From assembly GCA_951406725.2 (NCBI GenBank), contig OX597831.1, positions 34,596,001-34,660,000 of the forward strand: a stretch of DNA of 64,000 bases. Reading direction: 5' to 3'. The stretch is from Octopus vulgaris (Eukaryota). A program made the position numbers and the translations under genes. The notes under the pieces were generated by a model. That model was not told the DNA's origin and did no database searches. It saw only the letters and a list, made by a program, of their open reading frames with translations. Position 1 is the stretch's first letter. The number at the start of each line of letters is the position of its first letter. Shown here in pieces: positions 6,770 through 60,938 of this stretch.

Positions 6770-7324
6770 TTGGGTTGTCCGGAAAGTTCGTCCCGATTTA
6801 TAGTAGCTTACCTTTCGACTTAATTTAGAACATGGTTGAGTCCATAAAATAAGATTTGACTTCACCTCCATTTAGAGTACAGTTTAAGATATTTTTTCGT
6901 GGAAGAAGACGTATGTTCCTATAACCTGTGTTAATTCTGTAACCCTTTAAAATAGAAGATAAGAAAGTTCATTTTCGGCACTTGATGCTTTGGGAACCAG
7001 ACAAAAACTGCTGGGATGTGTTACTCCACCCTCCATATTCACCAGATATTGCTCCTTCGGATTTCCACTTATTCAGGTCTCTGCAGAATAGTCTTAATAG
7101 AAAAAGTTTTAATTCCTTGGATGACGTAAAAAGATACCTTGATGAATTCTTTGCCATGAAACCACCTCAATTCTGGGAAGAGGGTATTTTCAAGTTAAAG
7201 GAAAGATGAAGACGCATTGTGCAACAAAACGGCTCATATTTGGTTGATGAAAAATGTAATAGCAAGTATTTATTGAGCTTTTTTTTTCCTTTAAAAATCG
7301 GCACGAACTTTCCGGACAACCCAA
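6770..7324 (+). mobile_element. Internally deleted mariner element (MITE-like)
   Basis: ~30-bp TIRs TTGGGTTGTCCGGAAAGTTCGT, TA target duplication on both sides, and a transposase remnant WDVLLHPPYSPDIAPSDFHLFRSLQN (mariner YSPDLAPSD motif). Confidence 0.93.
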
Positions 7325-8020
7325 TATAATGCATGTACACTTGAAAGTACCATCAAATATTCGGAATTCGAATACAAAACGTGATGTAAACAAGAGTCAA
7401 TCACAAAACATCTTATCAACAGCACGCAGTCAATAGTGGGGGAGAGGTAGCTTAATCTGTTAGATATCAGAGTCAAATCTCCCTCAAATTCCTTTAAGGT
7501 ATTCGTCAATTGTTTTAGCTATGTATACGCACCCAAGAAACGACCAAACATACACAACTCAGCAGACTGATTTAGATAAGAGACGATCTCAGAAAACAAT
7601 ATATCAACACCATGCAGTCAAAGAGAAAATCTCAATGAGGATGGCTTGACCTGATAGATATTGTAGGCAAATCTCCCTCGAATTCCTTTGAGGTCTTCGT
7701 CCTTAGCATGAACACCTGAAAAACAATCTAATACATACAACTCAACTGGAATAAGTGATATAAACAGAAACCATTTTCAGCATACCAAGGAAGCTGTTGC
7801 AGAGTGGGGAAGCACGAGCTGCTTGACATAGGAGTCAAATTCCCCTCAAATTACCATGTCCATCATCGGTCTGATTTAATCGTTCATGTGCACCTGAGTA
7901 TTGCTATCCAGGGTACAAGATTGGGTAAAAATTATTATAAAGGACCAGCAACTTTTCACGTAGCATACTTCACATCTCCATCTCAGCGTTGCTGTCCAAG
8001 AAAAGGGCAACGCACGATGC

Positions 8021-9480: not shown

Positions 9481-9892
9481 AAGGAGGAAGGGGAGGGGAG
9501 GGGAGGGGAAGAGGAGGAGGTGGAGGAGGAAGAGGGAGGGGAAGTGGAGGAGGAGGAAGAAGAGGGGAGGGGAAGTAGAGGAAGAGGAAGAGGGGAGGGG
9601 AAGTAGAGGAGGAGGAAGAGGGGAGGGGAAGTAGAGGAAGAGGAAGAGGGGAGGGGAAGTAGAGGAGGAGGAAGAGGGGAGGGGAAGTAGAGGAAGAGGA
9701 AGAGGGGAGGGGAAGTAGAGGAAGAGGAAGAGGAAGAGGAAGGGGAGGAAGAGGGGGAAGGGGAAGGGGAAGAGGTGGAAGAGGAAGAGGAGGAAGAGGT
9801 GGAAGGGGAGGAGGAGGAAGAGGTGGAAGAGGAAGAGGTGGAAGAGGAAGGGGAGGAAGAGGAAGGGGAGGAAGAGGAAGAGGGGAGGAGAG
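9481..9892 (+). repeat. Polypurine (GGA/GAA/GAGGG) low-complexity tract
   Basis: About 410 bp almost entirely A/G on the + strand, following a (GAT)n run. Confidence 0.9.
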
Positions 9893-10080: not shown

Positions 10081-10173
10081 CATCAGCAATAATGCCACCA
10101 TCATCATCATCACTACCACCATCATCATCATCACTACCACCATCATCATTATCATCATCATCATCACTACCAC

Positions 10174-10208
<35 letters not shown>

Positions 10209-11010
10209 CTACCACCATCATCATCATCATCATCACCACCACCATCATTATCATCATCATCATCATCATCATCACTACCACCATCATCATCATCATCATC
10301 ATCACTACCACCATCATCATTATCATCATCATCATCATCATCACTACCATCATCATCATCATCATCATCACCACCATCATCATCATCATCATCATCACTA
10401 CCACCATCATCATCATCATCATCACTACCACCATCATCATCATCATCATCATCACTACCACCATCATCATCATCATCATCACTACCACCATCATCATCAT
10501 CATCATCACTACCACCATCATCATCATCATCATCATCACTACCACCATCATCATTATCATCATCATCATCATCATCATCACTACCACCATCATCATCATC
10601 ATCATCACTACCACCATCATCATCATCATCATCATCACTACCACCATCATCATTATCATCATCATCATCATCATCATCACTACCACCATCATCATCATCA
10701 TCATCACTACCACCATCATCATTATCATCATCATCATCATCACTACCACCATCATCATCATCATCACTACCACCATCATCATTATCATCATCATCATCAT
10801 CATCATCACTACCACCATCATCATCATCATCACTACCACCATCATCATCATCATCATCACCACCACCATCATCATTATCATCATCATCATCATCATCATC
10901 ACTACCACCATCATCATTATCATCATCATCATCATCATCATCATCACTACCACCATCATCATCATCATCATCATCACTACCACCATCATCATCATCATCA
11001 TCGTCACCAT
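10081..11010. repeat. (CAT)n-based minisatellite punctuated by CACTACCAC
   Basis: About 930 bp of CAT triplets with recurring CAC-TAC-CAC and TAT variants. Confidence 0.95.
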
Positions 11011-11479
11011 CAAACAACAAGAACAGTAATGACCGTTACAGCACTGTAACGCCAGTAATACTACGTTAATAGACCAGAGAGCCTCGATAATGATGAGAAT
11101 AAAAACGTGAATCAACGGAAGCGAGAGAGAGAGAGAGAGAGACGGGGGTGGGGGGTTGTGGGGGGAGAGAGAGAGAGAGGGGGAGGAAGGAAGAATAAAA
11201 GAAAGAAACACCACTAAACCAACAAACAAACAAACAAACAAACAAACAAACAAAAGGGGGAAAGCAAAGAAACAAAGAGAAATGAGAAAAACAAATAGAG
11301 AGAGAGAGAGATAAGAGAAAAAGAAACGAAGAAACGAAAGAAAAAAAAGAAAGATGGATAGATAAATGGAAAGGAAGGAAGGAAGAAAGAAAAGAAAATA
11401 GTAAGAGAGGAAGATAGATAGAAAGAAAACGCTAATTAAACGACAAGACTAAAGAGAAAAGCTAGATGGAAGAATGTAA

Positions 11480-12564
<1,085 letters not shown>

Positions 12565-13119
12565 CTACAACGACATAATATGCAGTTTTACGTTATTATT
12601 TTTGTATAAGGTCACGGTGATATCGTATCGTAGTACCGAATGAATGCCTATTATATCATTATATAACAGTGTTGTTATGCTGTTCAGAGATTTGGAAGAC
12701 GTTAATTGGTAGTTAACTGGTCAATTTTATACAAGATCTCAATTTAGATTTTTACCGAAATCCTCCCAAGGGGCTCTTCAACAAAAAAGGTCTTTAATCG
12801 TTGATTGACTGTTGATGTTTCCACCAACAACCTATATTTTGGGAACTTGTCTATTGTCATTAGCTATTGTCATACTTATTTCAGTCGCTGGAGCGTGGCC
12901 ATGCTGGAGCATCGTGTTTTAGTCGTACTTATCTTTCATTTTCTTTTTTCTTTTTAAGTCTGGTACTACTTCTATTGCGTTTCCTTTGCCAAAGGGTTAG
13001 CTTATCGGAACATAAACAAACCAACACAGGTTGCGATGCGGGGTCGAGACAAACCTAGCAACTTAGCTGAAAGGCACACACACACACACACACACACATA
13101 CACACATACATGTATTTTG

Positions 13120-13597
13120 TACGATTTTTCTTTGAGATTAATTTCAGTTCTTCTAGAGAGATTTCAAGCCGGTTGCTAACAGAGCGACAAGATATCTTGA
13201 GTTAAGACAGCTCCCGGTGTTGTGTTGATGAAACTGGCCATACATGCACCAAAGTGTGCGCATCTACTCACATAAGAATCTCAAAAGCAGAAATTTTGGA
13301 ATGTCTTACATATCTTCATTGTGCCACTAATAAATTGGATTTAGAGAAATCGCATCAGTTTCTTTTGCACTTTCTCCATGAAACCGAGTATTTCTAGGTG
13401 TTTGTGCAACTTTGTTGGTACATAACCTAATGTACCTTTGATGGTAGGTACAAATGAGAATTCAGACGGGGTACAAAAGCTGTAATTTCTGCTCTTGTAC
13501 CCTGACTACGAATTCTCATTTACACCTATCGTCGTTGGTGCATTAGATTATGTACCAACAAATTTGCACAAAAACCTTGATATACTCGCTTTCGCAG
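13120..13597. mobile_element. Head-to-head pair of R4/Dong-like LINE 3' fragments
   Basis: The + arm encodes LLYPDYEFSFTPIVVGALDYVPTNL. The - arm is a diverged copy that continues to ..SGTMKICKTF. PIVVGALG resembles the C-terminus of RLE-type non-LTR elements (compare the 34860 region). Confidence 0.6.
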
Positions 13598-13698
13598 AGT
13601 ATTTCTGTGTACTGTATACATGTATATATACATGCCTGTATGTATGTATGTATGTATGTATGTATGTATGTATGTATGTATGTATGTATGTATGTATG

Positions 13699-13730
<32 letters not shown>

Positions 13731-13828
13731 TGTATATGTATGTATGTATATATATATATGTATGTATGTATGTGTATGTATGTATGTATGTATGTATGTA
13801 TGTATGTATGTATGTATGTATGTATATG

Positions 13829-13861
<33 letters not shown>

Positions 13862-13866
13862 ATATG

Positions 13867-13967
13867 TCATTGTTCAGTTTTATTTCAAGATTTCTTGCCA
13901 ATAGAGAAAGAACCAGTTTCTTACCTAGATCCAAGACTCTTTCATTGCAATTTCAACATCAAAACGC

Positions 13968-14000
<33 letters not shown>

Positions 14001-14098
14001 CATTATTCAGTTTATTTCAAGATTTCTTGCCAATAGAAAAAGAACCGGTTTCTAACCTACATCCCAGTTTCTTTCATTAGAATTTCAACATCAACAAC
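13867..14098 (-). repeat. Two ~100-bp direct copies of a probable retroelement 3' end within (TATG)n
   Basis: TCATT.TTCAG..TTTATTTCAAGATTTCTTGCCAATAG repeated at 13867 and 14000, each preceded by TATG repeats. Confidence 0.6.
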
Positions 14099-14586
14099 TG
14101 GTTATTTTTGTTTGTATGTATGTACGTACGTACGTATGTATGTATGTATTTATGTATGTATGCATTTATTTATGTATGTGTGAATGCGTGCATGTATGCA
14201 TGTACCTATGTATTGATGTATGTATGTACGTACGTATGTATGTATTTATGTATGTATGTACGTATGTATGTATGTATATACTACGTACGTACACATGTAT
14301 GTATGTATTCTAAATTAGTCTTACCTATGGACGGCATTGTACAATGTTTCAGGAATAATCGCATATCGTAATGGCGTTACCTTGGTGACACTTCGAAGCA
14401 ATGCCTGTAATATCTTTCATAGAATTGTAAGATAATCGACATTTTCGGTCAAATCTTTAGAGTTTAAGGGCTTCGCTACATTCTTTTGTTCGTTAGGTGT
14501 ATTTGTAACGATCTCCGGATCTTGGATTGCAAAAAACATAACCTTCAAATGCAATGCTATCAAATATATAAATACATATGTGTATG

Positions 14587-14640
<54 letters not shown>

Positions 14641-14642
<2 letters not shown>

Positions 14643-14840
14643 CGGGAAGCTTTATGAAAATAAACAAAAGACGAAGGCAAGTGGAATACAAACAAACAAT
14701 TGTATTAGTATGGCGCTCGGGAATATAAATAAAACAAGTCTTTTACGTTTCGAGCCTACGCTCTTCAACAGAAAGATACACAGAAAAGAAACACGGAGAG
14801 AAACAAGGAGAGAAAAAAAATGCGTGCAGAAGCTAGCGAA
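14641..14840 (-). mobile_element. Penelope-like terminal (pLTR-like) fragment with hammerhead-like motif, within (TA)n
   Basis: Minus strand TCTTT-CTGTTGA-A-GAGC-GTAG-GCTC-GAAA-CG-TA-AAAGA, in which stems I and II pair; a related degenerate copy lies at ~45920-46085 (+). Confidence 0.5.
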
Positions 14841-14856
14841 TATATATATATATATA

Positions 14857-15130
14857 CAGCTCTTCAATATCCTTCCTAAATGCGAGAGACCTGCATTGTA
14901 TGGATGTGGGTTTCTTTAAAACTAAACTCGACCTCTTCTTGTCAGGGGTTCCAGATGAACCTACATCTCGGCAGGAAACACAGATGCGGGAAGCGGCGTC
15001 GAACTCCCTTGTTGACCAAGTGCCACGTATCAGAGGTGGTTTCACATGCTAGTGTAGCACAGTCAACGGTGGCGCCCCAGCACGGCCACAGCTTTCGGGC
15101 TGAAACATTTTTAAGGATTTAAGGATTTAA

Positions 15131-15133
<3 letters not shown>
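14857..15133 (+). mobile_element. CR1-type LINE 3' end (5'-truncated)
   Basis: Frameshifted QLFNILPK..RDL..MDVGFFKTKLDLFLSGVPDEP...AASNSLVDQV, typical of a CR1-clade ORF2 C-terminus; stem-loop tail followed by (TTTAAGGA)n. Confidence 0.7.
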
Positions 15134-15205
<72 letters not shown>

Positions 15206-15937
15206 TAGGAAAAAGAGGATTTGAAAATGCACTGAGAATACGTAAAAGACTTAACCGGTTTCACAGTATACACTGATTTTCAAAAAGTTGAAATAGAGAG
15301 ACGTGGCTTATGTCGCAACTGTTTTGTTTCTGACCAGTGTTTGAAGCTTGCCCTTTTTTTATAGGGAGTTCATGACTCAGACTAGTATATGTTTTGAATA
15401 GGATTTGATTGGTAGAGGATAGTCATATGACCAGTCTTAGAAATATTTGTAGGTTCTCCACTGCGTCCGTGTGTTAGCATCAAGTGACGATGTTTGGCGT
15501 CGTAAGTTAAGGCTGAATGTTTTCTGTCAAGTGTTTCTAGAGAATGAACACGTGATTAAGTATAGAAACTTATGTACGTTTCCTGCTTCGTCTGTCCGTT
15601 AGTGTCACGTGACGGTGTATCTTGTGCCTAAAAAAACCCTGGGACCAATCAAAAACGGCCCCACGCACAAACACAAACACGTATGTATATACATACACAC
15701 AGACACAGACACTCACACCATTCTGACCTCTAAAGACCGATCCCCATAACCACTCAACCATGAAAGAGAAGCAAAAACTTCTTTTCAATTCCACATTGCT
15801 CTTCCTTCCCCCCACCCAAACACACCTCCTAAACTGTCCCTTGAAATAGAAAATAGTCTTTTACGATAAAATTGTGAAACAGGTCAGTTCATTCCAAATT
15901 CTTTGTAAACTAAATATATCTCTTTTTGTGTATTAAA

Positions 15938-18900
15938 CACTTAACAACTATGGCGATATCGACTTTTATAGACTTCAGCATATGGAGCATATTCGTTATA
16001 TGGGTTTTCGAAAATTTTCACCGAAAATTTTACCCAAAAATTTACCCAAAATTTTCACCGAAAATTTTACCCAAAAATCTTTCGAAAGTTTTCACCGAAA
16101 ATTTTACCCAAAAAATTTTCGAAAATTTTCACCAAATATTTTCACCAAAAACTTTTCGAAGATTTTCATGGAAAACTTTCCCCAAAAATTTTTCCAAAAT
16201 TTTCACTGAACATTTTCCCCAAAACTTTTCCCAAAAATTTCACGGAAAATTTTCCAAGTTTTTCGAAAATTTTCACCGAAAATTTTACCCAAAAATCTTT
16301 CGAAAATTTTCACAGAAAATTATCCCCAAAAATTTTTCGAAAATATTCCCAGAAATTTTTCAAAAATTTTACGAAAGTTATCCCCCAAAATTTTTCGAAG
16401 ATTTTCCCAGAAATTTTTCAAAAATTTTACGAAAATTTTTGCCGAAAATTTTTTCCAAAAATTTTTCGAAGGTTTCATGAAAATTTTAACAAAAAATTTT
16501 CTAAAATTTTCTCCAAAAACTTTTCCCAAAATTTTCACCGAAAATTTTTCCAAAAAATAGATGTCATAGTTAAAAATAGAGTTTTAGGTGGCTGCTGCTG
16601 CTGCTTTCTGTGTATGTATAGCGTCAATTCTGGTGTTCTACTACATTCAAGATGCCTCAAAATCCCCGATACCCCAATTTCTGCTTTACACTTAATAACT
16701 ATGACGTGATCGACGTTTATTGACTTCAGCATATGGAGCATATTCGTTATATGGGTTTTCGAAAATTTTCACCAAAAACTTTCCCCAAAAATTTTTCCAA
16801 AGTTTTCACCAAAAATTTTACCCGAAAATTTTTCGAAAATTTTCACCGAAAATTTTACCCTAAAATTTGTCGAAAATTTTCCCCGAGCTAAAAATAGATG
16901 TTATGTTGCTGCTGCTTTCTGTGTATAAAGTGAATTCTGGTTTAATATTACAGTCAAGATGCCTCACCATCCCCGATACACCAGATTCTGCTTTACACTT
17001 AACAACTATGACGATATCGACTTTTATAGACTTCAGCATATGGAGCACATTCGTTATATGGGTTTCCGAAAATTTTCACAGAAAATTTTACCCAAAAATT
17101 TTCACCGAAAATTTTCCCAAAACTTTTTTGAAAATTTTTGCCGAAAATTTACCAAAAATCTTCACCAAACATTTTTCGAAAATTTACCGAAAATTTTCAC
17201 CGAAAATTTTACCCAAAAATCTTTCGAAAGTTTTCACCGAAAATTTTACACAAAAATTTTTCGAAAATTTTCACCAGATATTTTCACCGAAAACTTTTCG
17301 AAAATTTTCATGGAAAACTTTCCCCAAAAATTTTTCGAAAATTTTCACCGAAAATTTTCCCCAAAACTTTTCCCAAAAATTTCACCGAAAATTTTCCCAA
17401 GTTTTTCGAAAATTTTCACCGAAAATTTTACCCAAAATCTTTCCAAAATTTTCACCGAAAATTTTCCCCAAGTTTTTCGAAAATTTTCACCGAAAATTTT
17501 CCCAAAAATTTTTCGAAAATTTTCACCGAAAATTTTCCCCAAAGTTTTTCGAAAATTTTCACCGAAAATTTTCCCAAAAATTTTACGAAGATTTTCACCG
17601 AAAATTTTCCCCAAAGTTTTTCGAAAATTTTCACCAAAAATTTTACCTTAAAATTTTACGAAGATTTTCCCCAAAAATTTTTCGAAAATGTTTGCCGAAA
17701 ATTTTTTCGAAAAATTTTTCGAAGGATTTCATGAAAATTTTAACAAAAAGTTTTCTAAAATTTTCTCCAAAAAGTTTTTCCAAAATTTTCACCGAAAATT
17801 TTTCAAAAAAATGGATGTCATAGTTAAAAATAGAGTTTTAGGTGGCTGCTGCTGCTGCTTTCTGTGTATATATAGCGTCAATTCTGGTGTTCTACTACAG
17901 TCAAGATGCCTCACCATCCCCGATTCCCCAATTTCTGCTTTACACTTAATAACTATGACGTGATCGACGTTTATTGACTTCAGCATATGGAGCATATTCG
18001 TTATATGGGTTTTCGAAAATTTTCACCAAAAACTTTCCCCAAAAATTTTTCCAAAGTTTTCACCGAAAATTTTACCCAAGTTTTTCGAAAATTTTCGCCG
18101 AAAATTTTCCCAAAAATTTTTTGAAAATTTTTGCCGAAAATTTACCGAAAATTTTAACCAAACATTTTTCGAAAATTTACCCAAAATTTTCACCGAAAAT
18201 TTTACCCAAAAATCTTTCGAAAGTTTTCACCGAAAATTTTACCCAAAAATTTTCGAAAATTTTCACCAAATATTTTCATAAAAACTTTTCGAAAATTTTC
18301 ATGGAAAACTTTCCCCAAAAATTTTTCGAAAATTTTCCCAAAACTTTTCCCAAAAATTTCACCGAAAATTTTCCCAAGTTTTTCGAAAATTTTCACCGAA
18401 ACTTTTACCCAAAAATCTTTCCAAAATTTTCACCGAAAATTTTCCCAAGTTTTTCGAAAATTTTCACGGAAAATTTTCCCAAAAAAATTTTTCGAAAATT
18501 TTCCCCAAAAGTTTTTCGAAAATTTTCACCGAAAATTTTACCCAAAAATTTTACGAAGATTTTCACCGAAAATTTTCCCCAAAGTTTTTCGAAAATTTTC
18601 ACAGAAAATTTTACCCAAAAATTTTACGAAGATTTTCCCCAAAAATTTTTCGAAAATGTTTGCCGAAAATTTTTTCCAAAAATTTTTCGAAGGATTTCAT
18701 GAAAATTTTAACAAAAAGTTTTCTAAAATTTTCTCCAAAAAGTTTTTCCAAAATTTTCACCGAAAATTTTTCAAAAAAATGGATGTCATAGTTAAAAATA
18801 GAGTTTTAGGTGGCTGCTGCTGCTGCTTTCTGTGTATATATAGCGTCAATTCTGGTGTTCTACTACAGTCAAGATGCCTCACCATCCCCGATACCCCAAT

Positions 18901-21900
18901 TTCTGCTTTACTCTTAATAACTATGACGTGATCGACGTTTATTGACTTCAGCATATGGAGCATATTCGTTATATGGGTTTTCGAAAATTTTCACCAAAAA
19001 CTTTCCCCAAAAATTTTTCCAAAGTTTTCACCGAAAATTTTACCCAAGTTTTTCGAAAATTTTCACCGAAAATTTTCCCAAAAAATTTTTCGAAAATTTT
19101 CACCGAAAATTTTAACTGAAAATTTTCAGCAAAAATCTTTCGAAAATTTTCACCGAAAATTTTCCCCAAAATTTTTCAAAAATTTTCACCGAAAATTTTC
19201 CCAAAAATTTTTAGAAAATTTTGCCGAAAATTTTCCCAAAATTTTTTCGAAAATTTTCACTGAAAATTTTACCAAAAAATTTTTCGAAAATTTTCACCGA
19301 AAATTTTCCCAAAAATTTTACGAAGATTTTCACCGAAAATTTTCCCCAAAGTTTTTCGAAAATTTTCACCGAAAATTTTACCCAAAAATTTTACGAAGAT
19401 TTTCCCAAAAATTTTTCGAAAATGTTTGCCGAAAATTTTTTCCAAAAATTTTTCGAAGGATTTCATGAAAATTTTAACAAAAAAGTTTTCTAAACTTTTC
19501 TCTAAAAGTTTTTCCAAAATTTTCACCGAAAATTTTTCAAAAAAATGGATGTCATAGTTAAAAATAGAGTTTTAGGTGGCTGCTGCTGCTGCTTTCTGTG
19601 TATATATAGCGTCAATTCTGGTGTTCTACTACAGTCAAGATGCCTCACCATCCCCGATACCCCAATTTCTGCTTTACACTTAATAACTATGACGTGATCG
19701 ACGTTTATTGACTTCAGCATATGGAGCATATTCGTTATATGGGTTTTCGAAAATTTTCACCAAAAACTTTCCCCAAAAGTTTTTGCAAACTTTTCACCGA
19801 AAATTTTACCCAAGTTTTCCCAAAAAATTTTTCGAAAATCTTCACCGAAAATTTTTACTGAAAATTTTCAGCAAAAATCTTTCGAAAATTTTCACCGAAA
19901 ATTTTCCCAAAAATTTTTCAAAAATTTTCACCGAAAATTTTCCCCAAAAATTTTTAGAAAATTTTGCCGAAAATTTTCCTTAAAATTTTTTCGAAAATTT
20001 TCACTGAAAATTTTACCAAAAAATTTTTCGAAAATTTTCACCAAAAATTTTCTCCAAAAATTTTTAGAAAATTTTCACTGAAAACTTTTCCCAAAATTTT
20101 TCGATTTTCACCGATTTTGGCCCCCAACCCTGGCCTTCCATACTTTGTGATTTTGGCACCGCTGGCCTTCCATACTTTTTGATTTTGGCACCGCTGGCCT
20201 TCCATACTTTTTAATTTTGGTACCGCTGGCCTTCCATACTTTATGATTTTGGCACCGCTCGTCTTCCATACTTTCAGATTCCGGCACCGCTGGCTTTGTA
20301 ATTTTTTGAAAATTTTTCCCAAAAGTTTTTCCAAAATTTTCCCCAAAAATTTAACGTAAATTTTCACCGAAAATTTTCAGCAAAAATCTTTCGAAAATTT
20401 TCACGAAAATTTTCCCCAAAAATTTTTAGAAAATTTTGCCGAAAATTTTCCTTAAAATTTTTTTCGAAAATTTTCACTGAAAATTTTACCAAAAATTTTT
20501 CGAAAATTTTCACCAAAAATTTTCTCCAAATATTTTTCGAAAATTTTCACTGAAAACTTTTCCCAAAAATTTTTCGATTTTCACCGAATTTGCCCCCCCT
20601 CCCCCGGCCTTCCATACTTTGTGATTTTTGCACCGCTGGCCTTCCATACTTTTTGATTTTGGCACCGCTGGCCTTCCATACTTTTTGATTTTGGCACCGC
20701 TGGCCTTCCATACTTTTTAATTTTGGTACCGCTGGCCTTCCATACTTTATGATTTTGGCACCGCTCGTCTTCCATACTTTCAGATTCCGGCACCGCTGGC
20801 TTTGTAATTTTTTGAAAATTTTCCCAAAAGTTTTTCCAAAAAAAGAATTTTCGAAAATTTTCAGCAAAAATTTTATTTTCCCAAAAAAAAAATTTTTCGA
20901 AAATTTTCGAAAATTTTCCCGAAAAATTTTGCCGAAAATTTTCCCAAAAATTTTCGAAAACGAAAATTTTACAAAAAAATTTTCACCGAAAATTTTACCC
21001 AAAAATTTTACGAAGATTTTCACCGAAAATTTTCCCCAAAGTTTTTCGAAAATTTTCACCGAAAATTTTACCCAAAAATTTTACGAAGATTTTCCCCAAA
21101 AATTTTTCGAAAATGTTTGCCGAAAATTTTTTCCAAAAATTTTTCGAAGGATTTCATGAAAATTTTAACAAAAAGTTTTCTAAAATTTTCTCCAAAAAGT
21201 TTTTCCAAAATTTTCACCGAAAATTTTTCAAAAAAATGGATGTCATAGTTAAAAATAGAGTTTTAGGTGGCTGCTGCTGCTGCTTTCTGTGTATATATAG
21301 CGTCAATTCTGGTGTTCTACTACAGTCAAGATGCCTCACCATCCCCGATACCCCAATTTCTGCTTTACACTTAATAACTATGACGTGATCGACGTTTATT
21401 GACTTCAGCATATGGAGCATATTCGTTATATGGGTTTTCGAAAATTTTCACCAAAAACTTTCCCCAAAAATTTTTCCAAAGTTTTCACCGAAAATTTTAC
21501 CCAAGTTTTCCCAAAAAATTTTTCGAAAATTTTCACCGAAAATTTTAACTGAAAATTTTCAGCAAAAATCTTTCGAAAATTTTCACCGAAAATTTTCCCC
21601 AAAAATTTTTCAAAAATTTTCACCGAAAATTTTCCCCAAAAATTTTTAGAAAATTTTGCCGAAAATTTTCCTTGAAATTTTTTCGAAAATTTTCACTGAA
21701 AATTTTACCAAAAAATTTTTCGAAAATTTTCACTGAAAACTTTTCCCAAAATTTTTCGATTTTCACCGATTTTGGCCCACCCCCCCTGGCCTTCCATACT
21801 TTGTGATTTTGGCACCGCTGGCCTTCCATACTTTTTGATTTTGGCACCGCTGGCCTTCCATACTTTTTGATTTTGGCACTGCTGGCCTTCCATACTTTTT

Positions 21901-24900
21901 AATTTTGGTACCGCTGGCCTTCCATACTTTATGATTTTGGCACCGCTCGTCTTCCATACTTTCAGATTCCGGCACCGCTGGCTTTGTAATTTTTTGAAAA
22001 TTTTTCCCAAAAGTTTTTCCAAAATTTTCCCCAACAATTTAACGTAAATTTTCACCGAAAATTTTCAGCAAAAATATTTCGAAAATTTTCACCGAAAATT
22101 TTCCCCAAAAATTTTTAGAAAATTTTGCCGAAAATTTTCCTTAAAATTTTTTCGAAAATTTTCACTGAAAATTTTACCAAAAATTTTTCGAAAATTTTCA
22201 CCAAAAATTTTCTCCAAATATTTTTCGAAAATTTTCACTGAAAACTTTTCCCAAAATTTTTCGATTTTCACCGATTTTGTACTTTGTGATTTTGGCACCG
22301 CTGGCCTTCCATACTTTTTGATTTTGGCACCGCTGGCCTTCCATACTTTTTGATTTTGGCACCGCTGGCCTTCCATACTTTTTAATTTTGGTACCGCTGG
22401 CCTTCCATACTTTTTGATTTTGGCACCGCTGGCCTTCCATACTTTTTGATTTTGGCACCGCTGGCCTTCCATACTTTTTAATTTTGGTACCGCTGGCCTT
22501 CCATACTTTATGATGTTGGCACCGCTCGTCTTCCATACTTTCAGATTCCGGCACCGCTGGCTTTGTAATTTTTTGAAAATTTTTCCCAAAAGTTTTTCCA
22601 AAATTTTCCCCAAAAATTTAACGTAAATTTTCACCGAAAATTTTCAGCAAAAATCTTTCGAAAATTTTCACCGAAAATTTTCCCCAAAAATTTTTCGAAA
22701 ATTTTCACCGAAAATTTTCCCCAAGTTTTTCGAAAATTTTACCCTAAAATGTTTCGAAAATTTTCACCGAAAATTTTACCCAAAAATTTTTCGAGAATTT
22801 TCACCGAAAATTTTCCCCAAAAGTTTTTCGAAAATTTTCACCGAAAATTTTACCCAAAAATTTGTCGAAAATTTTCCCCGAGCTAAAAATAGATGTTATG
22901 TTGCTGCTGCTTTCTGTGTATACAGTGAATTCTGGTTTAATATTAGTCAAGATGCCTCACCATCCCCGATACACCAGATTCTGCTTTACAACTATGACGA
23001 TATCGACTTTTATAGACTTCAGCATATGGAGCATATTCGTTATATGGGTTGTCGAAAATTTTCACAGAAAATTTTACCCAAAAATTTTTCCAAAATTTTC
23101 ACCGAAAATTTTCCCAAAAATTTTTAAAAAGATTTTTGCCGAAAATTCTCCCCAAAAATTTTTTCGAAAATTTACCGAAAATTTTCACCGAAAATTTTAC
23201 CCAAAAATTTTACGAAGATTTTCACCGAAAATTTTCCCCAAAGTTTTTCGAAAATTTTCACCGAAAATTTTACCCAAAAATTTTACGAAGATTTTCCCCA
23301 AAAATTTTTCGAAAATGTTTGCCGAAAATTTTTTCGAAAAATTTTTCGAAGGATTACATGAAAATTTTAACAAAAAGTTTTCTTAAATTTTCTCCAAAAA
23401 GTTTTTCCAAAATTTTCACCGAAAATTTTTCAAAAAAATGGATGTCATAGTTAAAAATAGAGTTTTAGGTGGCTGCTGCTGCTGCTTTCTGTGTATATAT
23501 AGCGTCAATTCTGGTGTTCTACTACAGTCAAGATGCCTCACCATCCCCGATACCCCAATTTCTGCTTTACACTTAATAACTATGACGTGATCGACGTTTA
23601 TTGACTTCAGCATATGGAGCATATTCGTTATATGGGTTTTCGAAAATTTTCACCAAAAACTTTCCCAAAAATTTTTCCAAAGTTTTCACCGAAAATTTTA
23701 CCCAAGTTTTTCGAAAATTTTCACCAAAAATTTTCCAAAAATTTTTCGAAAATTTTCACCGAAAATTTTCCCCAAAGTTTTTCGAAAATTTTCACCGAAA
23801 ATTTTACCCAAAAATTTTACGAAGATTTTCACCAAAAATTTTCCCCAAAGTTTTTCGAAAATTTTCACCAAAAATTTTACCTTAAAATTTTACGAAGATT
23901 TTCCCCAAAAATTTTTCGAAAAAGTTTTCGGCAAACATTTTCGAAAAATTTTTCGAAGGATTTCATGAAAATTTTAACAAAAAGTTTTCTAAAATTTTCT
24001 CCAAAAAGTTTTTCCAAAATTTTCACCGAAAATTTTTCAAAAAAATGGATGTCATAGTTAAAAATAGAGTTTTAGGTGGTTGCTGCTGCTGCTTTCTGTG
24101 TATATATAGCGTCAATTCTGGTGTTCTACTAAGATGCCTCACCATCCCCGATACCCCAATTTCTGCTTTACACTTAATAACTATGACGTGATCGACGTTT
24201 ATTGACTTCAGTATATAGAGCATATTCGTTATATGGGTTTTCGAAAATTTTCACCAAAAACTTTCCCCAAAAATTTTTCCAAAGTTTTCACCGAAAATTT
24301 TACCCAAGTTTTCCCAAAAATTTTTCGAAAATTTTCACCGAAACTTTTAACTGAAAATTTTCAGCAAAAATCTTTCGAAAATTTTCACCGAAAATTTTCC
24401 CCAAAAATTTTTCAAAAATTTTCACCGAAAATTTTCCCCAAAAATTTTTAGAAAATTTTGCCGAAAATTTTCCTTCAAATTTTTCTAAAATTTTCACTGA
24501 AAATTTTACCAAAAAATTTTTCGAAAATTTTCACCAAAAATTTTCTCCAAAACTTTTTAGAAAATTTTCACTGAAAACTTTTCCCAAAATTTTTCGATTT
24601 TCACCGATTTTGGCCCCCCCCCTGGCCTTCCATACTTTGTGATTTTGGCACCGCTGGCCTTCCATTCTTTTTGATTTTGGCACCGCTGGCCTTCCATACT
24701 TTTTGATTTTGGCACTGCTGGCCTTCCATACTTTTTAATTTTGGTACCGCTGGCCTTCCATACTTTATGATTTTGGCACCGCTCGTCTTCCATACTTTCA
24801 GATTCCGGCACCGCTGGCTTTGTAATTTTTTGAAAATTTTTCCCAAAAGTTTTTCCAAAATTTTCCCAACAATTTAACGTAAATTTTCACCGAAAATTTT

Positions 24901-26603
24901 CAGCCGAAAATTTTCACCGAAAATTTTCCAAAAATTTTTAGAAAATTTTGCCGAAAATTTTCTTAAATTTTTTCGAAAATTTTCACTGAAAATTTTACCA
25001 AAAAATTTTTCGAAAATTTTCACCAAAAATTTTCTCCAAATATTTTTCGAAAATTTTCACTGAAAACTTTTCCCAAAATTTTTCGATTTTCACCGATTTT
25101 GCCCCCCCCCCCCCCCCCCGGCCTTCCATATTTTGTGACTTTTTTTGGCACCGCTGGCCTTCCATACTTTTTGATTTTGGCACCGCTGGCCTTCCATACT
25201 TTTTGATTTTGGCACCGCGCTGTAATTTTTTGGTTTTTCCAAAATTTTCCCAAAAATACGAAAATTTTCAAAATTTTTTTACAAAAAATTTTTCGAAAAT
25301 TTTCACCAAAAATTTTCTCCAAATACTTTTCGAAAATTTTCACTGAAAACTTTTCCCAAAATTTTTCGATTTTCACCGATTTTGCCCCCCCCCCCGGCCT
25401 TCCATACTTTGTGATTTTGGCACCGCTGGCATTCCATACTTTTTGATTTTGGCACCGCTGGCCTTCCATACTTTTTGATTTTGGCACCGCTGGCCTTCCA
25501 TACTTTTTAATTTTGGTACCGCTGGCCTTCCATGCTTTATGATTTTGGCACCGCTCGTCTTCCATACTTTCAGATTCCGGCACCGCTGGCTTTGTAATTT
25601 TTTGAAAATTTTTCCCAAAAGTTTTTCCAAAATTTTCCCCAAAAATTTAACGTAAATTTTCACCGAAAATTTTCAGCAAAAATCTTTCGAAAATTTTCAC
25701 CGAAAATTTTCCCCAAAAATTTTTCGAGAATTTTCACCGAAAATTTTCCCAAAAGTTTTTCGAAAATTTTCACCGAAAATTTTACCCAAAAATTTGTCGA
25801 AAATTTTCCCGAGCTAAAAATAGATGTTATGTTGCTGCTGCTTTCTGTGTATACAGTGAATTCTGGTTTAATATTAGTCAAGATGCCTCACCATCCCCGA
25901 TACACCAGATTCTGCTTTACAACTATGACGATATCGACTTTTATAGACTTCAGCATATGGAGCATATTCGTTATATGGGTTGTCGAAAATTTTCACAGAA
26001 AATTTTACCCAAAAATTTTTCCAAAATTTTCACCGAAAATTTTCCCAAAAATTTTTAAAAAGATTTTTGCCGAAAATTCTCCCCAAAAATTTTTCGAAAA
26101 TTTACCGAAAATTTTCACCGAAAATTTTACCCAAAAATCTTTCGAAGGTTTTCACCGAAAATTTTACACAAAAATTTTTCGAAAATTTTCACCAGATATT
26201 TTCACCGAAAACTTTTCGAAAATTTTCATGGAAAACTTTCCCAAAAATTTTTCGAAAATTTTCACCGAAAATTTTCCCCAAAACTTTTCCCAAAAATTTC
26301 ACCGAAAATTTTCCGCAAGTTTTTCGAAAGTTTTCACTGAAAATTTTACACAAAAAATTTTTCGAAAATTTTCACCAGATATTTTCACCGAAAATTACCA
26401 GTATTTTCCCGAAAACTTTTCGAAAATTTTCATGGAAAACTTTCCCAAAAATTTTCGAAATTTTCACGAAAATTTTCCCCAAAACTTTTCCCAAAAATTT
26501 CACCGAAAATTTTCCGCACGTTTTTCGAAAATTTTCACCGAAAATTTTACCCAAAAATCTTTGAAAATTTTCACCGAAAATTTTTCGAAAATTTTCACCG
26601 AAA
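15938..26603. repeat. 10.7-kb hierarchical complex satellite array
   Basis: Backbone of CGAAAATTTTCAC / CGAAAATTTTAC / CCAAAAATTTTT monomers. ~200-bp cores of type A at 16557, 17811, 18779, 19545, 21236, 23438, 24045 and of type B at 15938 (truncated), 16884, 22879, 25810. 32-bp repeat clusters at ~20119, 20591, 21773, 22279, 24611, 25100, 25383. Confidence 0.97.
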
Positions 26604-26893
26604 CAATGGCCCAGTGGTAAGGGCAGTGAACTCGCGGTCGTTGGATCGCGGTTTCGATTCCCAGACCGGGCGTTGTGAGTGTTTATTGAGCGAAAACACC
26701 TAAAAGCCCCACGAGGCTCCGGCAGGGGGTGGTGATCCCTGCTGTACTCTTTCACCACTCTTTCTCACACTCTTTCTTCTGTTGGCCTGCTCGCTTAGCC
26801 AGCGGGGTGGCGTCATTCGAACGCTAAAACAATGCGAACGCATTGTGACCAGCGATGTGTAACTACATCTGATGGACTGGTCGGTCACGTGAT
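26604..26893 (+). mobile_element. SINE, head A with tail X, abutting the array
   Basis: 5' half matches family A; 3' half matches the tail at 5845-5970; starts at CAATGGCCC with the first few bases missing. Confidence 0.85.
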
Positions 26894-33943: not shown

Positions 33944-35108
33944 ATAGAAAGGTTATATATACAACGTATGGAAGGTGGTAGAGACCTTATACAGCTAGGA
34001 AACTATTACAAAATAACCACCATAGAACTACAGAAATACCTACATCACAAGCAAGGAAAACTAATACAAATAGCCGCAAAGCATGAACAAAACCAAAAAG
34101 CTGTTTTCATTCTTTAAGGAAGCTGACAAATACAAAAATGAAGCCATAGGACCTAACAAGTATGAAGAAAACGAAGAGACAACGAAAGTTGTAAAACAAC
34201 TGGAATCCAAACTAAAAGCGGAAAAGCAATGGATCGTGATAAAACGATAGCAAGAAAAGCCCCTTCATGGCAAACACTGGACTAAACTAAACAGAAAAGA
34301 AATAGACAAAGTAAAAATCATAACAATGGCTGAGAAGCTCATGACTCAAAGCAGAGACTGAAGGATTTTTTAATTACCGCACAAGATGAAAGCCTCCACG
34401 CCAGAAATTACCAAAAAACACATAGTGCAAAAAAATACAAGTAACTGCAGAATATGTGGAGATGGAGAAGAAGCAATAACTTATATTATCTCTGACTACC
34501 CAGTCCTGGCTAAGAAAGAATATATACACAGACATCACAGAGTTGGGACCAATATACACTGGAAGCTATGCCAACACTATAGAATAACAACAGAAAAAGG
34601 ATGGTATAGGCACACGCTAGAAAAGGTCAGAGAAAATGAGAAAGCAACCATACACTGGGATGTGTCAATTCACACAGATGGAGATATTAAGGCCAATAGG
34701 CCGGATATAGTTGTCAGAGATCACCAACAAAAAAATGCTTTCTAAATGATGTATCAATACCAACAGATGACAATGTTTCTCTAAAAGAAATGCGGAAACT
34801 TTCAAAATACAAAGACCTGGAAATAGAGATAACTCGAATGTAGAGTCTAAAAACAGAAACAATTCCTAAGTGGGCGCATTAGGTATGATAAAAAAAAATA
34901 TTCAGACAAATACATAACAAAAACACCAGAACTAACAAGTATATACAACATACAGAAAATAGCACTACTATATACCGTACACATCCTTCACAAAACACAT
35001 TCAATACAGGGACAATAAGATCACCACAACAAACCACAGTACACACTCAAGGCACACAGAGCTGTACTCGGTAGTGCAATGAAAGCACGTGATAAAAATA
35101 AGACTACC

Positions 35109-38962: not shown

Positions 38963-40174
38963 GTGAAGTCTAACGGTTGTCCAATGTTAAGACAGTAAAC
39001 ATATAATCGAGATAGAAGGAAATTTAGAAAGTAAATGTATAATTCAATCATATACGGCATCTGGGGAATATGTGGTCAGATTATCGTGCTTCTCCACGTA
39101 GGAACCTTCCCATAGCCCTTGGACTGTATTCTAGTTGTCATTCCCAAACGAAATGTAGATTTTCAATTCGAAGTTGTAGGGTATGTCTGTTAAACGAAGG
39201 ATTTATGTAAAACAAGGCTTCGGCATCAAATTTAATATGCTGACACAATTGCTTATGACCCTTATTTTACGTGGCTATAGTTACCACAATGTAGTTGCTA
39301 GGTTAATGGCGCCTTGTAGGGATGAATATAATTCTTTCGAATCTTGGCACAAGGCCAGCAATTTTGATGGGATTAGGAAGTTGGTTATGCCGATCCTTAA
39401 TGCTAAACTGGTACTTAATTTATCGACACTGAAAGGATGAAAGGCAAATTCGACCTCAACGGCATTCGAACTCACAACGTAAAGAGCCGAAAAAAATGCC
39501 ATTTAGAATTTTTGTCTTGGGAGCTAACGATTCTTCTAGTTGGGCGAAAATAATTGGTACAGACGAAGGGGTACTGAAAAGTTCCTGGCTTTGGGTAAAA
39601 GAAAATACAGGGGAATCAATTAATTATGGTTTTTATTGAACATTTCTCTCTAAGACTAACACGCTTGCTTCAAGGATCCTTCGGTTTTTCTGAGCCATGT
39701 CAAAAAAAAAATCGGAATGTTGCACCTCCTACGAAGCCCCTCGTAGAATGCAAGCAATTGAACGAAATGATACAAACATTCTAGCAAAACTTCCATTAAT
39801 AAAGGTACACGTTCCTACATGCCTGCCAACCAGTGGAGATGTTTTGGAAACAACTGCAATTCTGTTCTGTCCTATGTGTGAGCGATCAAAAGAAACATGG
39901 ACATTCTCGAAACAGTTGAAAATCACCGCAACAGTTCTCTGTTAAAATGGTGACATGTCAGAGTGCTTAGCATTACAACAATTTACGATAGAATATTTTG
40001 CAGTGCCACTATTGCATTTAAGATGACAAGCTGTATTTATTTCTATTGTCAGATTGGCTGTCTTCGTATTTCAATTTTAAAAACGAAAAAAAAAAAACCA
40101 ATGAGTGGTAAGTAGCTTGCTTACCAACCACATGGTTCTGATGATGTTGAAGGCTTCGTTGTTTCTGGGGTCTT

Positions 40175-40811
40175 AAAAATACTCCCGTACATTTCCACAC
40201 ATAACCCCAGAAACAATAAAGCTTTCAACATCATCACCCAAAACCTTCCCATCCTCACAGCAGACAAAACAATGAACGAAATCTTAAGCTCATTTAAAAT
40301 TATAAAAAGCAAAAAGCAACCGAAGTCACTGAAAAAAATATTAACCAGCGCTAGACTGTATCCACTAACAACAGAGCCAAAAGTGACAAAATGTGGACGT
40401 TCTAATTGCGGAACATGACCCCACCTTCTGGAGGGTTCAGAATTCCAATTCAAACAAGGAGAAATATTTAAGATCAAATCAAATTTCACCTGCGCCTCAG
40501 CAAATGTAATCTATGTCATGACATGCATAGGATGTGGTAAACTCTTAATGGGACAAACAGGAATTTCGCTCCGTCAAAGAATCACCATTCACAAAGAGCA
40601 AATCCGCCACCCACAATACAGACAGTTAAAGGTGAGTGAACACATAGAAAGGTGTGCCAGGAATCTTAATCCCAATTTCCAAATATTTCCCTTTTACCAA
40701 TGCTCACAGAACACCACAATGCAACAAAGGTTGAATAAAGAGGCATTTTTAATCAATAAATTTCTCCCCCAACTAAATATGAACACACAACTCAATACAG
40801 AACACCACTAA
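40175..40811 (+). mobile_element. Penelope-like element 3' fragment (RT C-terminus, Cys linker, GIY-YIG endonuclease)
   Basis: ILPYISTHNP..KQPKSLKKIL..KCGRSNCGT*..CASANVIYVMTCIGCGKLLMGQTG..LRQRITIH..RLNKE..PQLN. Confidence 0.85.
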
Positions 40812-41286
40812 CTCTTCAATTGAAACCACTAACCCTTATACACTTCCTACACCATTCACATCCCTAAATCCAGAATTACTTACCTCCCTTACAAATAATC
40901 TTTTTTCTCAGGAACTATTAGACCTGACACCGTATATTAGCCGGTGTTTTTCAAACGATGAATAACTTTGCGTAACCATGGTCCGTTTTGTTCTCTCTCT
41001 CTTTATTATCATCTTATAATCCTCTCATAATAATGACTTTTATGACTCGTATTACTACCTCAGTCAATCTAAGTGTATATATTTGTCGTTACCTGTCATA
41101 AATAGCCTTTTTTATTTGCAATGTGCATTTTCGTTGATTTTTCATATTTTACCCATATATATATATATATATATATATAACACATTAAGCTATTCATATG
41201 GTTAGATTTTTTAATGCACAAGTGATTGTGCATGTGTGTGTGAATATATATTTATGTATATATGTCTGTGTATGTGTATGTATGTA

Positions 41287-52684: not shown

Positions 52685-52970
52685 TTATGACAAAGACAAA
52701 GACAAGGGTTCCAGTTTATCTGATCAATGGAACAGCCTGCTCATGAAGTTAACATGCAAGTGGCTGAGCATTCCACAAACATGCAGATCCTTAATGTGGT
52801 TCTCAGGGAGATTTAGTGTGATACAACTGGTGACAAAGCTGACCCTTTTCAATAACTGGTACAGCTAATTTTTGCCAGCTGAGTCGATTGCAGCAACACA
52901 AAATAAAGTGTCTTGCTCGAGGACACAACTCTTTGGTGGGAATCAAATTCTAATCACTAAGTCACATGTC
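52685..52970 (-). mobile_element. SINE, head D with tail Y (old copy)
   Basis: Tail GGAACAGCCTGCTC..GTGGCTGAGCA is shared with family A; head AAAGTGTCTTGCTC is shared with family D; a similar copy lies at ~62435-62722. Confidence 0.65.
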
Positions 52971-52981
52971 TTTATATTGTA

Positions 52982-53547
52982 TTGGGTTGTCCGGAAAGTT
53001 CATGCCAATTTATAGCAGCTTACCTTTCGACTTATTTTAGAACATGGTTGAGTCCATAAAATAGGATTTTACTACACCTCCATTTAGAGCACAGTTTAAG
53101 CTATCTTTTTGTGGAAGAAGGTTTATGTTCCAATAACCTGTGTTAATTCTGTAACCCTTTAAAATGGAAGATAAGAAAGTTCATTTTCAGCACTTGATGC
53201 TTTGGGAACTAGACAAAAATTGCTGCTGCTCAGCTGGGATGTGTTACCCCACCCTCCATATTCACCAGATATTGCTCCTTCGGATTTCCACTTATTAAGG
53301 TCTCTGCAGAATAGTCTTAATGGTAAAAATTTCAATTCCTTGGATGATGTAAAAAGATACCTGGATGAATTCTTTGCCATGAAACCACTTCAATTCTGGG
53401 AAGAGGGTATTTTCAAGTTAAAGGAAAGATGGAGATGCATTGTGCAACAAAATGGTTCATATTTGGTTGACTAAAAATGTAATGGCAAGTATTTATTGAC
53501 CTTTTTCTTTCCTTTAAAAATCAGCACGAACTTTCCAGACAACCTAA
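52982..53547 (+). mobile_element. Second copy of the internally deleted mariner
   Basis: Same TIRs and same MEDKKVHF..LMLWE / TRQKLL..WDVLPHPPYSPDIAPSD fusion as 6770-7324. Confidence 0.92.
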
Positions 53548-60874: not shown

Positions 60875-60938
60875 GAAAGAATGGTTGGTGACATCATTGC
60901 AAGAATACATTGTCAAATATGGAGCAGTTCTGACTATG
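60875..60938 (+). CDS. Candidate internal coding exon (64 nt, phase 2 to 0): KEWLVTSLQEYIVKYGAVLTM
   Basis: Long polypyrimidine tract plus TTTCAG acceptor, ATG/GTAAAA donor; CG from exon 52451 + G gives an in-frame Arg. Confidence 0.55.

Follow-up and report, generated by a model that had tools for sequence, protein, structure and literature searches.

A compound tandem array whose cores appear to end in the start of a CRESS-DNA-virus Rep gene

Architecture and surroundings of the array

Here, we describe a compound tandem array in a 64-kb stretch of DNA (the window), in which cores of two variants (A and B) and clusters of a 32-bp repeat (C) are set in a matrix of short monomers. An earlier note had placed an array of ~10.7 kb at 15938..26603 with the module order B'-A-B-A-A-A-C-C-A-C-C-B-A-A-C-C-C-B. 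Module decomposition recovered exactly this order over a span of 10,666 bp, divided into 7,161 bp of matrix, 1,970 bp of cores and 1,535 bp of C clusters, and the 32-bp clusters described there are seven, each with 2.7 to 8.8 copies of the unit. The matrix consists of A-tract/T-tract monomers and separates all modules in 17 inner segments of 129 to 769 bp each, followed by a 624-bp tail; its monomers are short, as had been proposed, with a measured length of 11 to 14 bp in place of 12 to 13 bp. Neither matrix words nor a second copy of the array were found in the rest of the 64-kb window. The features are listed below; Rep starts and codons refer to the predicted Rep frame treated in the next section.

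15725..15933, + strand: upstream part U, multi-copy; 15725 is the edge of the stretch compared, not the true left end
15938..16004, + strand: B', a core reduced to its 3' third, with Rep codons ~13-35; adjoins U across an internal deletion of ~65-70 nt
16005..26603, + strand: matrix separating all modules, built of A-tract/T-tract monomers of 11-14 bp
16557..16755, + strand: core A1, the most diverged of the A copies; Rep start at 16652 and in-frame stop at codon 24
16885..17062, + strand: core B1, with TATA-like word, nonanucleotide and Rep codons 1-35 open; least decayed copy
16943..16951, + strand: CRESS-type nonanucleotide TAATATTAC, 7 nt upstream of the Rep start, without stem-loop
16959..17063, + strand: putative Rep 5' 105 nt in B1, from Met to just beyond motif I, running directly into matrix
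17811..18009, + strand: core A2, Rep start at 17906 and in-frame stop at codon 24
18779..18977, + strand: core A3, Rep start at 18874 and in-frame stop at codon 24
19545..19743, + strand: core A4, Rep start at 19640 and in-frame stop at codon 24; first A-C-C block begins
20112..20305, + strand: C cluster 1, 32-bp units
20585..20811, + strand: C cluster 2, 32-bp units
21236..21434, + strand: core A5, Rep start at 21331 and in-frame stop at codon 24; second A-C-C block begins
21767..21993, + strand: C cluster 3, 32-bp units
22272..22572, + strand: C cluster 4, 8.8 units with internal duplication
22880..23048, + strand: core B2, Rep start 22952; 7-nt deletion (frameshift after codon 13) and 2-nt deletion destroying the nonanucleotide
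23438..23636, + strand: core A6, Rep start at 23533 and in-frame stop at codon 24
24045..24237, + strand: core A7, Rep start at 24134 and in-frame stop at codon 24, 6-nt upstream deletion; third A-C-C block begins
24605..24829, + strand: C cluster 5, 32-bp units
25094..25229, + strand: C cluster 6, truncated
25377..25601, + strand: C cluster 7, 32-bp units
25811..25979, + strand: core B3, Rep start 25883, deletions as in B2; 287-bp exact repeat with B2
26604..26783, + strand: SINE-like dispersed repeat abutting the right end of the array, ~91% identity to three other window copies

The interior is free of SINEs and microsatellites, as first noticed: it holds no (AT), (CA), (TG), (ATG), (AAT) or (ATGT) run above 6 bp. 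The array lies in a microsatellite-free gap of 14.0 kb, the longest of 103 (runner-up, 6.0 kb), and is flanked by SINE- and microsatellite-rich DNA over more than 14 kb on one side and 37 kb on the other. More than 3 kb of host DNA on both sides is what the available part of PMC6069186 takes to define an endogenous element. At the right end, the SINE-like repeat lacks its first ~9 nt, and no array follows it; this 9-nt 5' word, considered as a SINE-insertion target, is absent from 13000-16000.

The left boundary at 15938 proved not to be the edge of the element, in that 15725-15933 is itself multi-copy and part of it. Of 12 runs that contain related sequence, four were compared with the array, and all four yielded variant contigs; 652, 596, 438 and 608 contigs in the four organisms align to a 311-bp stretch, counts from which the number of genomic copies is not derivable. 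U, core and matrix each match many variant contigs in all four organisms, dispersed and clustered copies being indistinguishable at the level of contigs, and the summed depth of U reaches ~13,500 in X1 vs 24-62 for single contigs among those listed. Contigs in X1, X3 and X5 run from matrix back into core. Loose ends past 15911 match the TATA-like stretch of core A (19595-19608) in 11 contigs of X1, nine of X3 and six of X4, and loose ends before 15937 in the same three correspond to the core part missing from the window copy. Because other copies of 15725-15933 continue into the TATA-like part of the core, the window copy appears to have undergone an internal deletion of ~65-70 nt; no contig bridges the join at 15937 among the 32 listed of 2454 pieces. 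U also has varied loose ends before 15767-15783 and 15877. No RNA run is among those listed; X10, RNA by guess, has a share of 0.07, and small runs with low shares were given no weight.

Rep homology and decay of the cores

By sequence comparison, each A and B core terminates with the opening ~35 codons of a Rep gene of the CRESS-DNA-virus type. Compared directly with Pfam, the 35-aa core peptide is most similar to Viral_Rep positions 2-26, a weak match below cut-off (E 0.074); the case rests on a longer relative, P0002, and on a profile of Rep proteins. First, a search of 1.84 billion proteins with the core peptide gave three matches: P0001 (79% identity, E 1e-9), P0002 (60% identity to core B over 35 of 35 residues, from the first Met, E 1.5e-8) and one repeat ORF. 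P0001 and P0002 are Logan proteins from contigs of 0.9-1.8 kb, whose source may differ from the animals that carry the array. P0002 spans the whole Viral_Rep domain (2-82/82, 38.3 bits against a Pfam cut-off of 26), and Rep proteins make up all of its top six PDB matches. Second, with a profile of 13 environmental Reps from which P0001/2/4 were left out, the eight in-frame cores rank first among 4260 window tiles (E 5e-7 to 4e-5), the best non-core tile reaching E 0.48; core B scores 28.9 bits, and the highest of 2000 shuffles 11.0. This second test is not fully independent because some profile members were chosen by their motif-I pattern. The closest viral Reps found share 25-40% identity with P0002, and 35 codons are too few for naming a CRESS family.

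Searches beyond these matches were negative. Prokaryote genomes and plasmids contain no related Rep, and a bacterial plasmid origin was rejected on that ground. No intact Rep similar to the core was found in the searches made, none of 18 candidates was a full-length Rep near P0002 (weak evidence), and P0002 had no usable match in Atlas. The core peptide had no meaningful match in PHROGs, phages or PDB, the exact core DNA word none in viral and metagenome contigs, and the exact C word none in viral contigs. Rep motifs II/III, a helicase and a capsid gene were not found in the window, nor a capsid or further Rep part in 15210-15945 or the array; a minus-strand frame at 15210-15945, capsid-like by eye, was unsupported by Pfam, PDB, viral contigs and the protein collection. 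The possibility of an rDNA or other tandem-gene spacer was set aside when the Rep homology appeared. Two side observations concern P0003, which consists of 48 tandem 59-aa units with Rep-like beginnings, and a 50-aa frame that opens core A, is missing from B and has no Pfam match.

The Rep frame is broken in nine of the ten full cores, and only B1 is open through codons 1-35: codon 24 is a stop in all seven A copies, and a frameshift affects two of the three B copies. A and B differ at 10 of 105 coding sites, three of these synonymous, and all ten cores leave Rep at the same codon (~35) and pass into matrix. The cores read as decayed coding DNA, selection on the cassettes is unsupported, and we infer no present coding function. 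They are more uniform than the adjoining matrix (5/995 vs 16/975 substitutions; Fisher p 0.015), which turnover of the monomers can explain, though constraint might do so as well. The suggestion that the array is young or actively homogenised holds at this locus, where substitutions among the six later A cores number 0-4 in ~199 bp.

In the available part of PMC6186406, CRESS origins have the nonanucleotide at the apex of a stem-loop. TAATATTAC is intact in one of the ten full cores (B1); when core B is shuffled 100,000 times, it arises on one or the other strand in 511 cases, and together with a motif-I-like word in 11. At the B1 nonamer a 3-bp stem folds with −0.2 kcal/mol vs −6.1 to −10.7 for five viral nonamers, the fold test found no stem-loop in any core, and the gap to the Rep start is 7 nt vs 44-55 nt in 4 of 16 viral loci. 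U, cores and C are likewise devoid of a strong hairpin (best 40-nt fold, −5.5 kcal/mol). Because decay can erase a hairpin, its absence lowers the case for a working origin, not that for viral descent.

Origin, spread and local growth

The copies of the Rep 5' end in the array, together with related pieces that are multi-copy in close relatives, make it likely that an old viral insertion in the germ line, probably of an octopus, was turned into repetitive DNA by its host. With good but not full confidence, we propose that the array is an endogenous CRESS element in which Rep was cut at ~codon 35, fused to a minisatellite, amplified and then locally expanded. A CRESS replicon would have integrated into the germ line and undergone a single truncation at Rep codon ~35, since all ten copies exit Rep at the identical codon. 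The truncated Rep would then have been fused to the A-tract minisatellite and amplified to a multi-copy family. Local expansion probably took place within the matrix, through unequal exchange or through template switching; any monomer there can pair with any other, shuffling A, B and C.

The repeat structure has no single period. The B-to-B spacings of 5995 and 2931 bp reported earlier are correct, but the ~3-kb higher-order repeat drawn from them does not stand, three ~3-kb blocks being only 58-72% identical over all columns. The longest exact repeats lie at many offsets (2457, 2931, 2202, 1691, 3893, 3425, 968 and others), and 20-mers recur most often at a distance of 1650-1699 bp. Among repeated blocks A-C-C is the best: it measures 1.3-1.7 kb and occurs three times, with 97-98.5% identity where aligned and 73-82% over all columns. 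All 21 A pairs share at least 120 bp of context on the left and at least 60 bp on the right, and all 21 C pairs at least 80 bp on the left, a constancy around modules of variable spacing that speaks for exchange within the matrix. The earlier note had offered three options for the array, and the rolling-circle-amplified element comes nearest because the cores derive from the Rep gene of a rolling-circle replicon; the local array, however, is unlike a rolling-circle concatemer, since its unit length (module spacing) varies from 283 to 968 bp and the switches are located in matrix. The first spread may have come about by rolling-circle copying driven by Rep, by transport on a rolling-circle transposon of the host, or by tandem growth; for this locus we rank Rep-independent turnover first because the nonanucleotide is missing from nine of ten cores and a stem-loop from all of them.

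Non-autonomous Helitron/Helentron-type elements have a unique head, internal tandem repeats and defined ends with a 3' hairpin. A host transposon of this type with a minisatellite might have captured the Rep fragment, the viral piece being a passenger, a scenario that we regard as possible but doubtful. The anatomy of the array fits the head and tandem repeats of such elements, and U is multi-copy with varied loose ends; in addition, circovirus-derived sequence was amplified with LINE1 in carnivores, according to the accessible part of PMC11089739. However, no element ends are definable, the left lying beyond 15725 and the right being lost at the SINE, and the scanned parts (U, cores and C) contain no strong hairpin.

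We consider it somewhat less likely still that a defective CRESS replicon, consisting of an origin and the Rep 5' end, is or once was replicated in trans, with Rep supplied by a virus or by an endogenous gene, and then inserted again as a non-autonomous rolling-circle element, an animal counterpart of the Nicotiana GRD repeats. The retained parts (upstream region, TATA-like word, nonanucleotide and Rep start) are those expected, the nonamer is infrequent in shuffles of core B, and a multi-copy family has its precedent in GRD (PMC5014472, available sections). By contrast, there is no stem-loop, the nonamer occurs in one core and close to the start, unit length is not fixed, joins do not lie at the nonamer, and the searches found no intact Rep near the core. 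It is similarly unlikely, in our estimate, that a CRESS-derived non-autonomous rolling-circle family reached hundreds of octopus sites via a trans-acting Rep and seeded compound satellites; with P0003, the ssDNA-virus Rep 5' end would then be a recurrent satellite seed.

A satellite with a centromeric or structural role and a functional higher-order repeat, another of the earlier options, is very improbable: the array is uninterrupted, recently homogenised and A-tract-rich, but it has no fixed period, extends over only 10.7 kb among SINEs and microsatellites (a larger cluster may lie elsewhere), and its cores are decayed viral coding DNA. The direct Pfam score for 35 residues would permit a chance likeness to Rep, the array then being a compound satellite of the ordinary kind or, as in the third option, a tandem series of ncRNA genes. 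We judge this close to negligible given that the entire peptide, starting at its first Met, is 60% identical to a protein with a complete Viral_Rep domain, and given the shuffle controls and the lack of any Rfam match at gathering score (the 150 E-value matches listed of 279 all fall under it, the top one in self-complementary matrix; no tRNA genes were found).

Relation to known elements and significance

The nearest precedent for the proposed endogenous CRESS element is provided by the GRD repeats of Nicotiana. These geminivirus-related DNAs, GRD2/3/5/53, combine a degenerate truncated rep and an origin-like intergenic fragment in multiple direct repeats in related hosts, as described in the available parts of PMC5014472 and PMC7758297. 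The octopus array shares the truncated rep in multiple direct repeats and is origin-like by its nonamer only. It differs from what those parts describe in its animal host and its Viral_Rep (circovirus-like) type, GRD having a begomovirus-type rep; in keeping only 105 nt of rep, within an A-tract minisatellite with a second 32-bp repeat; and in lacking the 20-nt hairpin with downstream CTRR found in GRD.

Among animals, the consulted portion of PMC6069186 gives 1-4 endogenous CRESS/circovirus sequences in two bivalves and two gastropods; they are likewise rep-derived host DNA, and none is described there as a satellite. Octopus bimaculoides was among the genomes screened and is absent from the table of new elements. 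In carnivores, one germ-line circovirus insertion rose to high copy number with a spread linked to LINE1 (PMC11089739, in part), a comparable amplification of a viral insertion in an animal, whereas the octopus copies are tandem modules in a minisatellite. Replitrons of plants, algae and protists are eukaryotic repeats linked to CRESS-like Reps, with non-autonomous members and short terminal direct repeats, in the excerpts of PMC10288648; Replitron-1 has no Pfam match there, whereas P0002 clearly belongs to Viral_Rep and the ends of the octopus element are undefined. The part of PMC6011040 at hand deals with bacterial genes in octopus and uses 'cress' for thale cress, and the supplements of PMC9615429 and PMC10193959 do not mention 'octopus'. 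The literature covered contained no cephalopod endogenous CRESS case; subscription papers, Repbase and Dfam lay outside this coverage, and an earlier description is possible.

The array would be a satellite with a traceable origin, from virus gene to tandem repeat, for which the longer relatives P0001 and P0002 are available for dating the steps. Its copy number would be well above the 1-4 sequences that the available part of PMC6069186 gives for other molluscs. We suggest that such elements have been overlooked because 105 nt of Rep inside a repeat array falls under the Pfam cut-off. Mapping the ends of the family in an assembly would make Rep-driven spread in an animal genome testable, and the array would document, as a fossil record, that a CRESS-DNA virus once infected the germ line of a cephalopod.

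Architecture of the array

The array at 15938-26603 is real, in keeping with the earlier note, and probably represents a fragment of an endogenous CRESS-DNA virus turned into a compound satellite family. Its modules follow the order B'-A-B-A-A-A-C-C-A-C-C-B-A-A-C-C-C-B already reported there, in which A (A1-A7) and B (B1-B3) are cores, B' is the 3' third of a core, and C is a cluster of 32-bp units. Two thirds of the array (7,161 of 10,666 bp) is matrix, built of A-tract/T-tract monomers of 11-14 bp; the cores total 1,970 bp and the seven C clusters 1,535 bp. Because the matrix is largely self-complementary, it gives weak minus-strand self-matches and spurious hairpin-RNA matches. The reported distances between B cores (5995 and 2931 bp) are correct, but the ~3-kb higher-order period that had been derived from them is wrong, and the origin of the cores had been overlooked. 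Aligned with one another, the three ~3-kb blocks show 58-72% identity, exact repeats within the array occur at many different offsets, and the block that repeats best, A-C-C, is 1.3-1.7 kb long and present three times.

The array is uninterrupted, as had been stated, and no other microsatellite-free gap in the window is as long as the one around it. In their SINEs and microsatellite load, the flanks resemble Octopus DNA. At its right end, a SINE-like repeat missing its first ~9 nt adjoins the matrix, which is not resumed beyond. GC skew is uniformly negative across the array (16005-26603), at -0.26 to -0.35 per kb between positions 16001 and 26000. Elsewhere in the window, which may lie within a long intron, the following were observed:

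6770-7330 and 52960-53545: two copies, similar by eye, that resemble the C-terminal part of a mariner transposase; for 52960-53545, Pfam gave nothing at E 0.001
9482-9890: 400-bp purine-only repeat, adjoining the (CAT)n array
10099-11012: 914-bp (CAT)n array, regularly interrupted by CAC/TAC
33950-35030: decayed frames similar to the C-terminal portion of non-LTR retrotransposons; nothing matched in Pfam at E 0.001
40170-40830: degraded GIY-YIG endonuclease frame (sub-threshold in Pfam, E 9e-4), likely of a Penelope-type retroelement
60875-60940: possible short coding exon by eye, with a pyrimidine tract and AG before it and GT after it

Rep ancestry and state of the cores

The cores almost certainly descend from the replication gene (Rep) of a CRESS-DNA virus. 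First, the ORF list gives for core B a 35-residue peptide that starts at Met and contains the word FTLNN, which we take to be Rep motif I; TAATATTAC lies 7 nt upstream of this Rep start. The best Pfam match of the peptide is to Viral_Rep positions 2-26, below the cut-off (E 0.074). Second, among 1.84 billion proteins scanned, three matched, namely P0001 (78 aa, 79% identity to the core peptide), P0002 (104 aa, 60% identity, all 35 core residues covered) and P0003, a repeat ORF. P0002 has a full Viral_Rep domain above the Pfam cut-off, and in the PDB its six top matches are to Rep proteins, presumably of circoviruses. P0001 and P0002 are Logan proteins on 0.9-1.8-kb contigs; each is short, and its resemblance to Rep ends midway, as expected of decayed genes. 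Third, when a profile of 13 environmental Reps was run on 4260 window tiles, the eight in-frame cores ranked first (E 5e-7 to 4e-5) and the best non-core tile reached E 0.48, a control that is not fully independent because some of the 13 Reps were chosen by their motif-I pattern. Core B scored 18 bits above 2000 shuffles on the Rep profile. No relatives of the Rep sequence were found in prokaryote genomes and plasmids.

P0003 itself is a 2848-aa ORF on a 10,490-bp ENA contig, with 48 near-identical 59-aa units, the start of each resembling a CRESS Rep N-terminus. On the Rep profile, one of these units scored 13.5 bits versus 6.6 for the best of 2000 shuffles, and no Viral_Rep match to P0003 was found in Pfam; it is possibly an independent 177-bp satellite from the Rep 5' end. 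The viral contig L001 (whole, 2500 bp) carries two differing full Rep ORFs in tandem (247-1125 and 1502-2359), each preceded by a nonamer stem-loop, and no other long ORFs, and would be either two joined Rep-only circles or a chimeric assembly.

A stop at codon 24 interrupts all seven A copies, and B2 and B3 are frameshifted after codon 13, leaving B1 as the sole open copy; all ten copies exit Rep at codon ~35 and continue into matrix. Of the 105 coding sites, 10 distinguish A from B, 3 of these synonymously, a pattern that does not indicate selection on the peptide. Among the later A cores, six in number, copies are 0-4 substitutions apart, which argues for recent local expansion. Substitutions number 5/995 in cores versus 16/975 in neighbouring matrix (p 0.015); monomer turnover is the simpler reading of this greater core uniformity, and constraint on the cores could also be its cause.

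The CRESS-type nonanucleotide (nonamer) is intact in one of the ten cores. Under the CRESS origin definition given in the accessible text of PMC6186406, it failed the origin test, with a fold of -0.2 kcal/mol; five viral nonamers used for comparison have 8-9-bp stems at -6.1 to -10.7 kcal/mol. Here 7 nt separate the nonamer from the start. Of 16 viral loci, 4 have a nonamer upstream on the same strand, at a distance of 44-55 nt from the start; in the remaining loci, it is on the other strand (5) or absent (7).

Left edge and copy number

The left boundary at 15938 is not the edge of the element, and the array belongs to a family. Parts of it are present in 12 public runs from seven studies under four organism labels. 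Contigs of four of these runs (X1, X3, X4 and X5; one per organism) were placed on 15725-16035, with 438-652 contigs per run on these 311 bases. The supposed left flank is an upstream part of the element (U, 15725-15933) and is itself multi-copy: summed contig depth, which does not equal copy number, is up to ~13,500 in X1 versus 24-62 for single listed contigs, and we infer a copy number of the order of 100. Loose ends behind 15911 (X1, X3, X4) correspond to the TATA-like segment within core A, and those before 15937 are the core part missing from the window copy (both within 24 of the 255 loose-end rows). Thus, other copies run from U through a full core into matrix, and ~65-70 nt were lost from the window copy. 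Contigs passing from matrix back into core in X1, X3 and X5 show such arrays outside the assembly, X1 possibly being the source of the window; no contig bridging 15937 was found among 32 listed pieces of 2454. Just upstream of U, at 15604-15660, a palindromic GTCACGTGAC and a CCAAT word look promoter-like by eye. No capsid gene was found upstream of the array (15210-15945).

Spread, growth and relation to known elements

We suggest that a CRESS replicon would have integrated into the germ line, that a single truncation would have fused Rep codon ~35 to a minisatellite, and that the fused element would then have been amplified as a family. Locally, the array would have grown by mispairing of matrix monomers, so that A, B and C were shuffled and no fixed period arose. 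A rolling-circle concatemer would instead consist of uniform units with their joins at the nonamer, a pattern not observed in the array. All 21 pairs of A modules share at least 120 bp of context on the left and at least 60 bp on the right, and all 21 pairs of C modules share at least 80 bp on the left; despite this fixed local context, module spacings range from 283 to 968 bp. Two accounts of the earlier spread overlap with this main reading, which is not tied to any one route. Spread by a host rolling-circle transposon is conceivable but doubtful. Rep-driven spread is improbable.

According to the available portions of PMC5014472 and PMC7758297, the geminivirus-related DNA (GRD) of Nicotiana consists of multiple direct repeats that contain a truncated rep and an intergenic fragment resembling an origin. 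The octopus array is of similar build; however, it is not a GRD, because it has another type of Rep and lacks the hairpin. Amplified circovirus elements, with LINE1, are described for carnivores in an excerpt of PMC11089739. In the part of PMC6069186 at hand, mollusc CRESS elements amount to 1-4 sequences, and O. bimaculoides was screened and is absent from the list. Neither an octopus satellite of this kind nor a cephalopod CRESS element was found in searches of the open literature. The array is probably a variant of the known endogenous CRESS elements, one made into a compound satellite family.
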